From contig OX597815.1 in the NCBI GenBank assembly GCA_951406725.2, forward strand, positions 3,658,001 to 3,722,000: 64,000 nucleotides of DNA. Reading direction: 5' to 3'. The position numbers and the translations under genes were made by a program. This document shows, piece after piece, positions 2,700 through 56,992 of this stretch (positions within the stretch are counted from its first letter, which is position 1; each line of letters opens with the position of its first letter). The notes beneath the pieces were generated by a model that saw only the letters and a program-made list of their open reading frames with translations, searched no databases and was not told the origin of the DNA. Source of the stretch: Octopus vulgaris (lineage: Eukaryota).

Positions 2700-2912
2700 A
2701 AGTTAATCCAAACAAGAAAGCACAAAAAAAACACAACAACGCGAGGACTTGGAGCAAATATAGTATTATTGGACGCTCAGGAAAGAAGGAAAGAAGCAAG
2801 GTTTAACGTTTCGAGCGGAGCTCTTCGTCGGAAACATAGGAGAAGGAAAGATCCAGAGAAGGGAAGACAGAGGGAAAAAATCGCCAACGGTACAGACGAG
2901 GTCACATTTTGA
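2700..2912 (-). mobile_element. Short interspersed module (Penelope pLTR-like) with hammerhead-like motif, copy 1
   Basis: Near-identical to 9734-9945 and 48744-48957; abuts (TA)n. Minus 2801-2835 reads GTTT-CCGACGA-A-GAGC(TCC)GCTC-GAA-ACGT-T-AAAC. Confidence 0.7.
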
Positions 2913-3849
2913 AAATATAATATGTATATGAATGAATAGAAAATGGCGATGTATAACAATTGGCAATTTATAAATCAAAATTTAAAATTCCTTAGCATAA
3001 TAGTATATTGTATTATATTCTTGTGATAATACAATATAATAAATAATAGATATTAAATACAAATGTTTCAGTTCTCGGCCATAATAAAATTATAAAAATT
3101 CATTGTTTCTTTGGCCAAGAATCTCCTCAGTGGAATTTCTTATGCATATTGGGATTCACACATCTAATAAGATTGACTTTCAATCTATTTGTTTACAAAC
3201 GTGATTGTTATTAATTAAAAACAAAAAAAAACAAAGATATTATTTTAAGTAGTTTTTATTCGGCTGCATGTGACTTAAAGTTTCGCTGACTTCCTATTGA
3301 AACGTGGCTCGTTAAGGCTCAGAGTACCGGATGAACCTGAACGCACCAGGTTTCTGCTCGAAGCTTGCAAAACCTTGAGTCGCTTGGGACCACATCAAAC
3401 TGTTTTAAATAATAATATATGAATCTACTATTAAATATGTTCAATGTCTTTTTCTTTCCTTTCCCCACCCACTCATACAAATATATAAGCATATATGTAT
3501 ATTAGCATATAATTATTTATATATGTGTGTGTATATATATATATATACATATATATACATATATATATACACACACGCCTGTGTGTGTGTCTGTGTCTGT
3601 GTTTGTCCCCATTTACGTTTGACAATCGGTGTCGATGCGTTTATGTGTCTGTAACTTAATTGTTGTTCAGCAAAAGGGACCGAGAGATTATAGTATATAT
3701 ATATATATATATATATATAACAAATATATATATATATAGTATATATATATATATATCGATATAATATATATAGGCGACGCTCAAGGGTAGCCGCAGTCAT
3801 ATATGACTGAAACGAGTATATATATAGTATATATATATATATATATATT

Positions 3850-3966
3850 CCGTTTTATATTTGGTTTGTAAGATTCTTTATGTGAATTCGTGCGTTGAAG
3901 CATATTTTGTTGTGTCTGGGGAGAGACATTCCCTTTTAGTGCTTTATTACTTAAAACACTCACCGG
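3850..3966 (-). mobile_element. Fragment of the repeat family seen at 22311-22553 and 30997-31075
   Basis: Shares GTAAGATTCTTTATGTGAATTCGTG...GTTGTGTCTGGGGAGAG with the other copies; next to (TA)n. Confidence 0.65.
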
Positions 3967-4627
3967 TTCGATTTCAGCAAAAAGAGACCGATAGATTAAG
4001 TACTGGGCTTAAAAAAACAAATAAGTAGAGACATCGAATCGGTGAGTAACAAAGCAGAAAAACGGAATGAATCTCCAGGGACACAATAATATGATGTATA
4101 TACCTCACTCAGAGATTTATCATATATATATATATTTATTGTGCAACTGAAGATGTCACCGCATTTGAATTGATGTAATGATTGCATTGTTCAATTAAAT
4201 GGAGCCGCTTGAACCGGTCGTAATGTATCACTACATGATATCCTTTTGCTTATTTTGATATATATATATATATATATATATATATATATATATATATATG
4301 TATATATGTATGTATGTGTATATATATATATATATATATATATATATATGTATATATGTATGTATGTGTATATATATATATATATATATATATATACAAT
4401 TAAAGATTTTCTTACCTTTGTAAGGTATTTCTTTCATGCTGGCCACTTGATAATTTCGACACTTAAATATCGATATTATCCTCATATATAAATATATATA
4501 TATATATATATATATATAACTATATATATATATATATATATATATATATATATGATTGCATTGTTCATATTATATGGAGCCGCTTGTATGTATGTACTAT
4601 ATATATATATCATATTTGCTTATTTTG

Positions 4628-4945
4628 ATATATATATATATATATATATATATATATATATATATATATATATATATATATATATATATATATATATGTA
4701 TATATGTATATATATATATATATATATATATATATATATATATATATATATATATATATATATATATATATATATATATATATATATATATATATATATA
4801 TATATATATATATATATATATATATATATATATATATATATATATATATATATATATATATATATATATATATATATATATATATATATATATATATATA
4901 TATATACATATATACATACATACATACATATACATATATATATAT
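4628..4945. repeat. Long (TA)n microsatellite
   Basis: About 300 bp of nearly pure TA. Confidence 0.95.
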
Positions 4946-5402
4946 AATAATAATGATAATATGACAACAAAACAATGAAGGAAACCTCGATATTATGTAA
5001 AATAGAGGAATTAATCTATAAATATACGTAACAAATTATTATGACAACCAACTAATTGTCACATAATATTCATATATATATGTATTCATATATATCCATG
5101 TATGCATTTATGTAGTTATGTATGTATGTATGTATGTATGTATGTTTATACAAGAGAGAAATAAAGAGATTAAGTGCGTGTGTGTTATAAAATATATTCG
5201 AATAGTTTTGTTTTCATTTAATTTCATTTTATGATAATAAAATATTCTTGTTTTGAAAATTGGTAAGAATTCCATCGCTTTGTTGATGTTCTAAGAAATT
5301 TGATAGAAGTTAAATTATGGATACCGTGTGTATGTATGTTTGTGTATATATGTATGTATGTCATTTTTACTTATATGGTGGCAAAAGTTACCCGTCGTAG
5401 GA

Positions 5403-5552
5403 TGGTTCAAATTCCGCCGCGGTTGACCTCGCCTTTCGTCCTTTCGAGATCGATAAATTAAGAACCAGTTGCGTACGGGGGTCGATCTAATCGACTGCCC
5501 CCCATCAACCCACCCCCAAAAATTCAGGCCTTGTGCCCAGAGTAGAAAAGAT
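5403..5552 (+). mobile_element. SINE family S1, 5'-truncated
   Basis: GGTTCAAATTCCGCCG...GGTCGATCTAATCGACTG...GGCCTTGTGCCCAGAGTAGAAAAG. Confidence 0.8.
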
Positions 5553-5949
5553 AATATTGACGACGACTACGATGATAATGATGATGACGGTGGAAACGAC
5601 GACGATGACGATGATGATGATGATGATGATGATGACGTCGAAGACGACGATGACGACGATGATGATGGCGATGCGGATGAGGATGATGATGGTGATATAT
5701 CATATATATCATTTATTATGATTATTAATTATCTTTGCCATTCATCCTTCCGCGCGGTCGATAACATTAAGCAGCGATGAAGTGAGGCCTGTATTCCTTG
5801 CTAACCACTGACGCCCTTCCATCAAAAGTTGCTGGTTTTCTGTCTAAATTAGAAATGCTAATAATCCTAATACCAATTACAATAACAATCATACTAATAC
5901 TACTAATACTACTAATACTAATACTACTAATAACTACAACATTAATAAC

Positions 5950-54671: not shown

Positions 54672-54882
54672 AGGCGGCGAGCTGGCAGAAACGTTAGCGC
54701 ACCGGGCGAAATGCGAAACCGTATTTCGTCTGCCGTTACGTTCTGAGTTCAAATTCCGCCGAGGTCGACTTTCTCTTTCAGCCTTTCGGGGTCGATAAAT
54801 TAAGTACCAGTTGCGTACTGGGGTCGATCTAATCGACTGGCCACCTCCCCAAAAGTTTCGGGCCTTGTGCCTAGAGTAAAAA
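54672..54882 (+). mobile_element. SINE S1 (full length, best preserved)
   Basis: GGCGGCGAGCTGGCAGAAACGTTAGCGCACCGG (A box) ... GAGTTCAAATTCCGCC (B box) ... GGCCTTGTGCCTAGAGTA. Confidence 0.9.
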
Positions 54883-54979
54883 TAATATATAGATATCATA
54901 TGCACACTTACTTACTTACATACATACATACATACATACATACATACATACATACATACATACATACATACATACATTA

Positions 54980-55570
54980 AAAGAGACTCAAGGTCAGTAA
55001 ATCCCTTCGATGCAATAGTCCCATGGCCCTTTTCGAGAATTCCGTTTTTAAGGAGGATCCTCTAATGGTAATCACGAGGATCTTCCACTCCCAGTGGCTG
55101 ATCATCCGCTGAGCCACCGGGAGGAAAATTCTTCTGTTTGAAGTCTGAGTGCTCTCCACTAAGACTGCAACCAATTTCGTTCCTTGGAAATCACGATATG
55201 AATCTGTCACGAAATCCTGCGGCGACGAGGAAGAGTAGAAGCTACAGACTTGACCAGTTGGATGTATGTCGCGGAAAACCTGTATTGTAGGGGAGTCTGT
55301 GTATTGGTCGTTTCTTTTCAAAATAATGTCGATGGAAAAGGCTCGGTAACATCTTATGAAGCTGAAGAGACCTTACGAAAGAAAGATGCCACTTCACATC
55401 TGTTAATTAGAACGGACTATGAAGAGGTGATCTAAACAAAGCTTGTCTCATCCTGGATGTGGCCACCAGCCCTGCAGCGGGTTTTTGTCCTCGATTTAGT
55501 AGGGGTTTCAGTGGAAACACGCAGGGAATTTTCAACTTTGAAGAAGGGATCATACTCGGCACGAGCTGAC
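54980..55570 (-). mobile_element. Possible decayed L1/Tx1 APE-endonuclease fragment
   Basis: Only VFRDIHPTGQVCSFYSS resembles the D.WR..HP...YTFYS motif; catalytic motifs are not intact. Confidence 0.25.
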
Positions 55571-55687
55571 TTCAATCACATACACACACATATTGACATA
55601 CACACATATACATACATACATACATACATACATACATACATACATACATACATACATACATACATAGACATATTCCTTTATCTCATC

Positions 55688-55912
55688 TTTTGCTTGTTTC
55701 AATCATTACACTGCGGCCATGCTGTAGCACCGCCTTCGGGCACAGGCATTGGGTTACGGTCCGAAATGCGACATCGCCAATAAGAATCTTGATCGAACGA
55801 ATTGGCGTTATTACATTTTTATTTAACACTGATACTTATTCTATCGGGTCTCTTGCCGAACTGCTAAGTTACAGGGATGTAACCACACCAACACTGGTGG
55901 CCAAATGCTGGA
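55688..55912 (-). mobile_element. SINE S2 tail half (with insertion)
   Basis: CTGCGGCCATGCTGTAGCACCGCC...TACTTATTCTATCGG...GCTAAGTTAC. Confidence 0.7.
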
Positions 55913-56948
55913 GACATACATTTATACATAAATACATACATATATATATATAAATATTATATATATATATGTGTATGTGTGTGTAAATATATATATATAT
56001 ATATATATATATATATATATAGATATATATATATATATATATAAATGTGAATATATATATATATATACATACATATATACATATATATTAATGTGAATAT
56101 ATATAATTTAATGCAGAAACATTAAAATAAGAGCTACTAATAATTTTATTAAACGATGATATTTATCTCTCACTGGATGGAGTGCTTTTCTCTTCATCAA
56201 CGGAACAGTAAACTATATATGTGTGTGTGTGTGTGTGTGTGTGTATTATGTATGTATGCATATATTCTTTTCTTATCAGTTTCAGCTCAAAGATGTGACC
56301 ATACTGGGGCACTACATTATATATACATATATATATATATATATATATATATATATATATATATATATATAGAAATTCGGGGTGAGTACTTGATAATTAT
56401 AAGCACCTGTGTATACCGTTTGGTGGTGTAGGTGGTGGAGTAAATTGATCAAAATAAAAACATGATGCGAAGGATTCAGCGGTACATATGTTTCGGGCCT
56501 TTATTAGACAGATTTATAACAATGCATAATGTATGTCTGTGGCCTTCATCCTACATTGAGAGAAGAAAGAGATGGACGCTTCAATTCTATGCTGCTGCCG
56601 CATTATGTCGTACGCGAATGGGAGGATTTGCATCCCCAACCAAGAATTTTTGATGTAACACATGTCCTTGTGGAAGCTGTTATATATATATATATATATA
56701 TATATATATATATATATATATATATATATATATATATATATAAAGTGGTTTGTATGATTGTGAATAGAGGGATATATATATTATTCAAAGAAATTCCAAC
56801 TCTGTCTGTTTTTTATGTTTTATTTATATTCTTTATAATATTAATGTAGAATATAGAATATATAGTATAAATAATGTATATATAGTAAAATGAAATGAAG
56901 TATTGATCGTCGTATTGAATAGATGAAATATTGAATATCAAATATTAA

Positions 56949-56992
56949 GGGACTAGTATACTTTCTTGCATTAAAGCAGTCTTCGAGGTCCC
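56949..56992 (-). ncRNA. Hammerhead-like motif with 5-bp helix I
   Basis: Minus strand GGGAC-CTCGAAGA-C-TGC(TTTAAT)GCA-A-GAA-AGTATACT-A-GTCCC; the core carries one extra nucleotide. Confidence 0.55.

Follow-up and report, generated by a model that had tools for sequence, protein, structure and literature searches.

Minimal hammerhead motifs in probable 3' ends of Penelope-like elements within a 64-kb window of the Octopus vulgaris genome

Hammerhead-like repeat modules in the window

The window, the whole stretch of DNA analysed here, comprised 64,000 nt of Octopus vulgaris contig OX597815.1 (positions 3,658,001 to 3,722,000). An initial annotation had listed 16 sites with GAA, a palindrome and H in about nine or more families, and all 16 proved to be members of ten high-copy repeat families (A to J, Table 1). 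On the motif strand the pattern was confirmed at 13 of the 16 sites; it failed at 35688 and 37050, where the palindrome was complete and GAA had mutated to AAA, and at 35759, where GAA was complete and the palindrome carried one substitution. Repeat finding in the window was dominated by microsatellites. A tblastn search of the window with five Penelope-like element (PLE) proteins of the same genome returned zero matches, in agreement with the annotation, which saw no RT or GIY-YIG ORF there.

Table 1. Repeat families with hammerhead motifs in the window, and the nearest coding sequence seen upstream in genome copies
Family and feature	Coordinates	Strand	Motif	Core and helices	Palindrome	Upstream ORF
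A, element in (TA)n	2702..2910	-	2801-2835	helix I GTTT/AAAC; core CCGACGA (U4→C); bulged A; helix II GAGC/GCTC; H=U	ACGT	
A, copy	9735..9943	-	9833-9867	one mismatch in helix II		
A, copy	48746..48957	-	48853-48887			
B, 3' end (3' UTR of PLE)	10347..10519	-	10412-10447	helix I CTTT/AAAG; core CUGUAGA (A6→U)	ACGT	GIY-YIG end ~0.9 kb upstream in longer copies
C, 3' end	13382..13609	-	13437-13474	core UUGAAAA (U3-A8)	ACCGGT	GIY-YIG end 769 nt upstream of GAA (L154)
D, old	21480..21695	+	21510-21598	core CUGAUGA in most related copies, G8→U in window copy; long branched helix II	ACGTACGT	
E, preceded by 54-nt inverted fragment 22310-22363	22310..22546	+	22366-22402	core UUGAAAA	AATT	
F, old	24543..24755	-		atypical core (UUGAACAA) ~110 nt upstream of GAA; long helix II	ACACGTGT	degraded GIY-YIG 0.9-1.2 kb upstream (L214)
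G, copy truncated within helix II	31449..31541	-		coreless	ACTTCGAAGT	
G, copy 35572-35736 and inverted truncated copy 35760-35807	35572..35807	-		decayed core and GAA		
G, decayed copy	36973..37082	-		GAA → AAA	intact	
G, copy 45269-45424 and inverted copy 45195-45262	45195..45424	+		core lost	intact	
H	46407..46610	+	46455-46538	core CUGAAGA; U·U at helix II base	ACAGCTGT	GIY-YIG match ends 310 nt upstream of GAA (L230)
I, very young, 3' end 56366-56550 joined to inverted piece 56546-56681	56366..56681	-		inverted piece in place of core; CUGAAGA in other copies	ACATATGT (other copies)	RT C-terminus and GIY-YIG end ~1.9 kb upstream (L301/L302)
J, 3' end	56734..57008	-	56949-56992	helix I GGGAC/GTCCC with bulge; core UYGAAGA	AGTATACT	GAA 253 nt behind GIY-YIG stop (L270)

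The annotation also described a CUGANGA-like core and a helix II as usually preceding the GAA. Five of the 16 sites (2801, 9833, 48853, 13437 and 22366) were the only matches in the window to a strict descriptor (helix I of at least 3 bp, YYGANRA, helix II, GAA, palindrome, H, helix I'), compared with 0.12 on average and at most 2 in any of 100 block dinucleotide shuffles; the other 11 failed it in the window copy. Failure of the descriptor was due to a family-fixed non-canonical core in B at 10412 (A6→U) and F at 24621 (one extra base), to a bulge adjoining helix I in J at 56949, and to decay in D at 21510, H at 46455 and G at 35688, 35759, 37050 and 45280, and the core was missing by truncation or at an inversion junction in G at 31508 and I at 56479. 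Related genome copies carried the motif in all ten families, with the YYGANRA-type core and helices I and II in A, C, D, E, G, H, I and J and a deviating core in B and F. Descriptor matches, related copies and location behind GIY-YIG ORFs support the assignment of the motifs as minimal type-I PLE hammerheads. Bare GAAA followed by a 4-mer palindrome was found 46 times in the window against 35.3 expected, close to chance; 8-10-mers such as ACTTCGAAGT, ACGTACGT and ACACGTGT exceeded chance (0-0.08 expected apiece in shuffles). The best 150 of 740 matches in an Rfam scan of the window were mostly of microsatellites to miRNA models, with none at gathering score and no hammerhead among them. AATAAA, described as following the motif in several cases, lay within 35 nt of just 3 of the 15 cut sites checked, and a poly(A) signal was dropped as a module component.

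Penelope-like parents and copy history

Linked RT and GIY-YIG ORFs were found for six of the ten families: B, C, F, H, I and J have copies 0.25-1.9 kb behind a Penelope-like GIY-YIG ORF. No parent ORF of A, D, E or G was found in the genome copies examined. Intact RT+GIY-YIG elements are plentiful in this genome, among them a complete PLE (L106) with 456-bp direct pseudo-LTRs (pLTRs), one such hammerhead in each, and a 781-aa RT+GIY-YIG ORF; in this element the hammerhead precedes the first ATG of the following ORF1 by ~120 nt. Its protein and that of L115 scored over the Pfam cut-off for GIY-YIG and slightly under it for RVT_1, and proteins of a second PLE clade, identified by visible motifs and tblastn only, had no Pfam match. 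Three PLE ORF copies were spaced 3.6 kb apart. A cysteine linker motif was present in the PLE parents, which visible motifs place tentatively in the Neptune/Nematis clades. Since six families trace to GIY-YIG ORFs and intact elements are abundant, most modules would be 5'-truncated or inverted PLE 3' ends, and the earlier description of the families as non-autonomous or retrozyme-like and mobilised in trans is not supported for most of them, six of ten being 3' UTRs of ORF-bearing PLEs.

In Neptune/Nematis PLEs, insertion favours (TA)n targets and inverted 5' copies occur (Craig et al. 2021, PMC8557442). Here, (TA)3 was present at the 3' end of 115 of 133 parsed copies against a background of 15%, and 5' ends were graded, from -55 to past -1555 in I and from -117 to past -1626 in H. 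Graded 5' truncation occurred together with inverted 5' copies in I, H and C, and opposite-strand neighbours were seen at 9 of 18 I loci and 4 of 18 H loci. Judged by copy structure, truncation and inversion in these three families appear to be the usual debris of autonomous PLEs. Between a pair of C copies 5.9 kb apart (C15) no ORF was found. A first look gave at least 283-2,294 candidate copies per family, and the loci of a 1-Mb census, selected by similarity, form a non-random sample of the genome.

Two other identities were considered and rejected. Family B was rejected as the tail of a CR1-like LINE, a label suggested by a frame beside one locus (L081), as longer copies reach GIY-YIG. Family G was rejected as a MITE with terminal inverted repeats because its related copies carry helix I (ACAGT/ACTGT), core CYGAYGA and helix II, and because four copies continue upstream without inversion; tblastn of that upstream extension with five PLE proteins yielded no ORF.

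Pairing, cleavage and core variants

We consider it very probable that the modules are 3' ends (pLTR pieces) of about ten PLE families with minimal type-I hammerhead motifs, an explanation with published support (PMC4209133, PMC11167929 and PMC8557442). Short copies are likely to have arisen when target-primed reverse transcription into (TA)n repeats left 5'-truncated and often inverted products. In a full element, the hammerheads of its two pLTRs, both carried on one tandem transcript, would pair via palindromic helix III and helix I, and the resulting double hammerhead would, by analogy with published PLE work, cleave weakly and probably with the aid of the element's protein. Selection likely maintains the palindromy of helix III, while its letters may diverge among lineages through insertions at the centre and compensatory changes, and solo window copies are probably mostly inert. 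Monomer folds of seven window copies did not exceed those of shuffles in stability (z -1.95 to +1.2). Computed self-duplexes of 6-8-nt palindromes ranged from -4.6 to -11.1 kcal/mol and intramolecular hairpins from +2.4 to +6, and on these calculations two copies could likely pair through their palindromes. Dimer cleavage of PLE hammerheads was reportedly described by Lünse et al. in 2017, in work that may cover heterodimers or A6 variants.

The motif might instead be retained as a structural or protein-binding element, e.g., near the start of reverse transcription, with cleavage vestigial in several families. The two families counted genome-wide, A (U4→C) and B (A6→U), have cores expected to be weak, U4C and A6C hammerheads being of low activity (PMC3088659), and B was amplified with U6, in 15,434 exact motif copies vs 173 with the canonical A6. 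No 5' ends at the cut site were found in nine families, so the DNA carries no trace of cleaved templates, and in a published system ribozyme mutants had no effect on in vitro insertion and RNA ends were not seen at the cut site (PMC11167929). However, catalytic positions still look constrained: position 7 of B, which is free, was A/T in 10,889 copies and C/G in 4,545, whereas G8 was altered in 228 copies vs 10,889, and C3-G8 and U3-A8 covary across families. Retention of the motif for such a role, with vestigial cleavage, is a possibility to be taken seriously, though on balance we think it unlikely.

Family A and non-autonomous units

Non-autonomous retrozymes or SINE-like units, which are transcribed, self-cleaved, circularised and copied in trans, could also leave short modules of this kind, and animal retrozymes have been argued to derive from pLTRs (bioRxiv 10.64898/2026.07.22.740005). 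Confined start points favour such an origin for family A, whose 35-nt motif has 4,524 exact copies in the genome (reversed control, 0). Of 20 A copies picked by their 3' half alone, 17 start at least 83 nt upstream of the cut site and none reaches past about -112; two begin at +6 and +8 from the cut site, but these starts adjoin the query's own edge and therefore give no evidence of a cleavage trace. Likewise, the sequence shared by 42 parsed A motifs stops ~115 nt upstream, except at one locus represented twice. The starts of all 20 solo copies of J also cluster tightly, between -38 and -56 relative to GAA, a result biased by the query. Contigs across the family A cut site were present in four runs presumed to be RNA, and these contigs show neither ends nor strand.

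Against this origin, retrozymes are tandem repeats with canonical hammerheads (PMC7229834), whereas the motifs here are minimal. Head-to-tail tandem repeats of 150-450 bp with one hammerhead per unit were absent from the window, same-strand neighbours, the retrozyme hallmark, numbered 4 among 133 parsed copies, and B, C, F, H, I and J, as UTRs of ORF-bearing elements, are not discrete units without a coding parent, a status plausible for A. We therefore regard retrozymes as a rather improbable source of the modules at large and retain PLE 3' ends; A alone is likely a discrete pLTR unit without autonomy, a relative of B that would be copied in trans.

Palindromes and self-recognition

Without palindromy being imposed, helix III was perfectly palindromic in 31 of 52 clusters and palindromic with G·U in two more, and 25 control shuffles yielded 0.4 palindromic sites of 10.3 per shuffle. 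The initial annotation gave each module its own palindrome and proposed that this acts as a family-specific self-recognition code. The former is contradicted by A and B, which both have ACGT, and by the reappearance of palindromes in other families: 20 octamer clusters share 10 palindromes where a random draw predicts 17.3, with 0 of 100,000 simulations as low, and ACGT is used by five clusters. Common ancestry contributes to this sharing. Being common to several families, the palindromes do not amount to a unique self-recognition code, and the code proposal is further weakened by 16 of 182 cross-family pairings with at least four Watson-Crick pairs in helix III. Sister PLE families differ in ways that preserve the palindrome (AGTACT vs AGTATACT, ACACGTGT vs ACATATGT), and the G·U-containing forms ACGATTGT and ACGGTCGT were found alongside ACAATTGT and ACGATCGT.

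When Watson-Crick pairing of at least 4 bp in helix III and at least 3 bp in helix I was required, 2 of 182 ordered cross-family pairs remained, both A/B; with G·U allowed, helix III of at least 4 and helix I of at least 2, cross-pairing was seen in 20 of 156, where the 156-pair count lacks G and has the J-sister register wrong, and the 182-pair count has both redone with helix I of G one base off. By sequence, then, families other than A/B would be told apart by helix I together with helix III and not by the palindrome alone. Such separation is what the base-pairing arms of any hammerhead would give, and selection is a candidate cause. The A/B-only cross-pairing and the unlike palindromes of sister families would fit a code of palindrome and helix I selected against trans-cleavage among PLE families and solo copies, and with ~20,000 exact motif copies in A and B alone, encounters in trans could occur. 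Nevertheless, palindromes are shared above random draw, ACGT recurs and G·U pairs widen the cross-pairing; moreover, cross-pairing persists between A and B, two very abundant families with related sequence around the motif, and cis pairing inside a tandem transcript requires no code. We find a selected code very doubtful. Also improbable is a broader scheme in which at least 30 co-existing PLE hammerhead families use helix I and palindrome as an evolving lock-and-key limiting trans-cleavage, with B's fixed A6→U core still functional, maybe protein-rescued. Chance matches in AT-rich, microsatellite-rich DNA, compatible with the near-chance frequency of GAAA plus 4-mer palindromes and with the Rfam scan, are refuted by the enrichment in the window, the palindromic clusters and the motif in both pLTRs of an intact PLE.

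Comparison with known systems

A single genome with several young intact PLE families, unlike palindromes and natural core variants (U4→C, A6→U, U3-A8, 10.1-11.1 mismatches) provides material that eases testing of in vivo PLE hammerhead cleavage, dimer discrimination and the role of cleavage in transposition, and aids the annotation of short unclassified repeats in such genomes as ends of PLEs. The kind is already known: minimal PLE hammerheads with a palindromic helix III and many families per genome were described in 2014 (Cervera & de la Peña 2014, PMC4209133). The hammerheads of metazoan PLE pLTRs share with ours the type-I topology, palindromic helix III, the U3-A8 variant, an extra base on the 5' side of helix II (here in A, B, E and G) and an AU-rich 3' flank, as well as many consensus families per genome, mostly solo copies, opposite-strand pairs and few copies in full PLEs. 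Ours differ in that 6-10-nt palindromes are common, several families have a 10.1-11.1 mismatch (U·U, A·C, C·A) or a helix II of 50-110 nt, and B has a fixed A6→U, no such A6 variant being seen in the portion of that report considered here.

Non-LTR retrozymes (Cervera & de la Peña 2020, PMC7229834; bioRxiv 10.64898/2026.07.22.740005) are likewise short, ORF-less PLE-related units with type-I hammerheads, but the modules here lack tandem arrays and canonical loop-loop hammerheads and are mostly truncated UTRs of ORF-bearing elements. A pLTR hammerhead, AT-rich targets and a lack of ends at the cut site are also features of Poseidon PAc of Anolis carolinensis (Frangieh et al. 2024, PMC11167929). 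Its hammerhead overlaps the start of the ORF, whereas here, from sequence only, the motif is found 0.25-1.9 kb past the stop. The octopus elements further resemble endonuclease-bearing PLEs with a CX2-5CXXC linker (Neptune/Nematis; Craig et al. 2021, PMC8557442) in the C-terminal GIY-YIG behind RT, the cysteine linker, pLTRs, inverted 5'-truncated copies, microsatellite targets and an optional 3' tail (here in C), and the 781-aa family here differs from them in having a separate upstream ORF of ~460 aa.

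Hammerhead motifs of the window

The 64-kb window (G000:C2:3658001-3722000), about 32% GC and rich in microsatellites, is part of a 2.8-Gb eukaryotic genome, presumably that of a cephalopod. The initial annotation reported a recurring pattern of GAA, a palindrome and H at 16 places, and 13 of these carried it; at the other three, GAA had become AAA (two places) or the palindrome was altered (one). A strict descriptor of the minimal hammerhead found five sites in the window compared to 0.12 expected (100 shuffles, maximum 2), and the remaining 11 sites missed it because the window copy had decayed, was truncated or carried a non-canonical core. 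Genome searches placed the 16 sites in ten multi-copy families (A-J), in agreement with the earlier estimate of about nine or more, with 283-2,294 first-look candidates per family as lower bounds on family size. The motif was present in related copies of every family. AATAAA, earlier said to follow the motif in several cases, lay downstream of only three of 15 cut sites checked.

Hammerhead motif in related copies of the ten families and upstream GIY-YIG ORFs (loci in brackets)
Family	Core	Helix III palindrome	GIY-YIG ORF upstream
A	CCGACGA, 27/30 loci (2 unparsed)	ACGT, 26	
B	CUGUAGA, 19/20	ACGT, 18/20	~0.9 kb (L306, L313, L318, L319); partial Pfam GIY-YIG, E 0.0039, under cut-off
C	UUGAAAA, 20/20	ACCGGT, 20/20	769 nt (L154, also L155)
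D (oldest)		ACGTACGT, intact in 4/18 (regex)	
E		AATT, 14/20 (4 unparsed)	
F		ACACGTGT, 10/18	0.9-1.2 kb, degraded (L214)
G (copies mostly decayed)	CYGAYGA; helix I ACAGT/ACTGT	ACTTCGAAGT	
H		ACAGCTGT, 14/18 (4 unparsed)	310 nt (L230)
I	intact in 16	ACATATGT, 18/18	~1.9 kb (L301, L302)
J		AGTATACT, 18/20	253 nt (L270, L103)

Parent Penelope-like elements

As the initial annotation had noted, no Penelope-like element (PLE) ORF was found within the window, though many exist elsewhere: a GIY-YIG search of the genome gave 6,136 candidates and, of 150 scored, many lay within 781-aa open frames. Locus L106 was a complete PLE with 456-bp direct pseudo-LTRs (pLTRs), an upstream ORF and an RT+GIY-YIG ORF, and both pLTRs held a minimal hammerhead (core UUGAUAA, palindrome ACATGT). 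A second active PLE clade had 899-aa frames and the motif CUGAAGA/ACACGTGT, with CCGAAGA/ACATATGT in a sister family; because a Pfam search with 846 aa recognized no RT and no GIY-YIG domain, its proteins were interpreted by their motifs. In the window, six of the ten families (B, C, F, H, I and J) ran upstream into a GIY-YIG ORF in longer copies, and their hammerheads are located in PLE 3' UTRs. No parent ORF was found for families A, D, E and G.

Family A had 4,524 exact motif copies in the genome and matched family B at 74% over 50 nt around the motif. None of 20 copies extended upstream past about -112, and 17 of 20 picked by their 3' half alone began at least 83 nt upstream of the cut. 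Family A probably represents a discrete pLTR unit that is non-autonomous. In family B, core position 6 was U in 15,434 exact motif copies compared to A in 173, and copies with U6 included ones behind long open frames; position 7 was free (A/T in 10,889, C/G in 4,545) and G8 was altered in only 228. According to the available text of PMC3088659, activity is low in hammerheads with A6C or U4C and in those with an insertion behind A6; a U·U at 10.1-11.1 is mentioned too. A literature search for a hammerhead A6U variant brought up papers on other RNAs. For family B, this single contrast fits two readings: a core that still functions when assisted, or an element that can do without cleavage.

Coordinates of further features (window positions, or positions within loci of the assembly)
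Position	Feature
759-1177, 45421-45904, 54671-54891 and others	Very common short repeats of two or more further kinds, recurring in window and loci; presumably SINE-like
1700-1900, 16230-16434, 16912-17562 (+), 40073-40213 (-)	Four non-LTR retrotransposon 3' fragments adjoining (AAT)n; restriction-like endonuclease C-terminus, weak zf-RVT match on a 216-aa frame; we take them to be Dong/R4-like
3853-3975 and 30997-31077 (-)	Two more family E fragments, without hammerhead
7693-8202 (-)	169-aa frame, presumably resembling a decayed mariner-type transposase C-terminus
61539-62394 (+)	GC-richer, with 150-193-aa open frames; may be an exon of either orientation
L106:906-1985, L109:768-2207	Separate upstream ORF (~460 aa) of the young 781-aa PLE family, in another frame and overlapping the RT ORF; no Pfam family above cut-off
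L082:1950-2420	CCAAT- and CRE-like boxes, each repeated, in the 3' UTR of the 781-aa PLEs, then TATAAAA where the L106 5' pLTR begins; likely an internal promoter for the downstream copy
L291 (G000:C1:119516900-119521200)	Example of the head-to-tail 3.6-kb arrays of the 899-aa clade
L087:2982 (-), L146, L080:217	Hammerhead-like motifs with helix III closed by its own loop (e.g. ATTGG-AA-CCAAT); each may work as a monomer

Constraint on helix III and predicted pairing between families

A relaxed descriptor that did not impose the palindrome was run on 1,020,736 nt, comprising the window and 300 loci around these families and PLE ORFs. In this non-random set, 52 clusters were found, 31 with a perfect palindrome and two with a G·U-containing one, compared to a mean of 10.3 sites per shuffle, of which 0.4 were palindromic, over 25 shuffles. 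Palindromicity of helix III is therefore a real constraint, and the core is constrained as well. Most of the perfectly palindromic clusters (24/31) lay outside the window families. Between sister families the palindrome was altered yet preserved (AGTACT/AGTATACT, ACACGTGT/ACATATGT), and G·U forms occurred alongside ACAATTGT and ACGATCGT.

The palindrome had been described as family-specific, but sequences were reused: ACGT was common to five clusters, ACAGCTGT to four and ACATATGT to four, and 20 octamer clusters shared 10 sequences compared to 17.3 expected (0/100,000 simulations), a deficit that partly reflects common ancestry and the splitting of clusters. In the established geometry of a double hammerhead, helix I too forms between the two molecules. 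Among ordered cross-family pairs of 14 families, helix III made at least four Watson-Crick pairs in 16/182, and A/B was the only such pair that also made at least three in helix I; with G·U allowed, under a looser test, 20/156 cross pairs passed. On paper, both arms together would give pairing specificity between families. The suggested self-recognition code of the palindrome is weakened; inter-family specificity comes from helix I as well and follows from base pairing, with no sign of selection for difference. No published heterodimer cleavage tests of PLE hammerheads were found in a literature search.

Insertion pattern and proposed mechanism

Copies were truncated, inverted and inserted at TA targets. 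The 5' ends of family I, a young family in which 40/40 scored matches were identical over 111 nt, formed a graded truncation series from -55 to beyond -1555. Across 133 parsed copies in seven families (18/151 loci were unparsed), (TA)3 was at the 3' end in 115 (background 15%), and neighbours were on the opposite strand at 18 and on the same strand at four. No copy starting at the cut site was found in nine families, which fits uncleaved RNA as template. We postulate that two identical pLTR motifs in a tandem transcript would pair into a double hammerhead, that cleavage would be weak and likely protein-assisted, and that the parent protein would make the short copies through target-primed reverse transcription. 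Low dimer activity of minimal PLE hammerheads is reported in the available sections of PMC4209133, and those of PMC11167929 describe cleavage as protein-assisted, yet dispensable for in vitro insertion.

Comparison with known systems

The dimer model is repeated in the accessible text of PMC6765202 and PMC6466107. As no dedicated study of Penelope hammerheads in the host's presumed taxon was found in a literature search, and the word 'hammerhead' is absent from the available portion of the 2026 repeat annotation PMC13282606, families A-J may so far be unannotated as ribozyme carriers. The initial annotation's retrozyme-like reading was not supported for most families: non-LTR retrozymes, as presented in the accessible parts of PMC7229834 and bioRxiv 10.64898/2026.07.22.740005, are recognized by tandem repeats, an arrangement that the window families did not show, and most of these lead into a GIY-YIG ORF. 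Truncated and inverted PLE insertions, in contrast, are described in the available text of PMC8557442 and PMC4209133 with the same pattern as found here. By their testable features, the window motifs are the minimal PLE hammerhead of 2014, as far as it is set out in the available text of PMC4209133, and would work like it.
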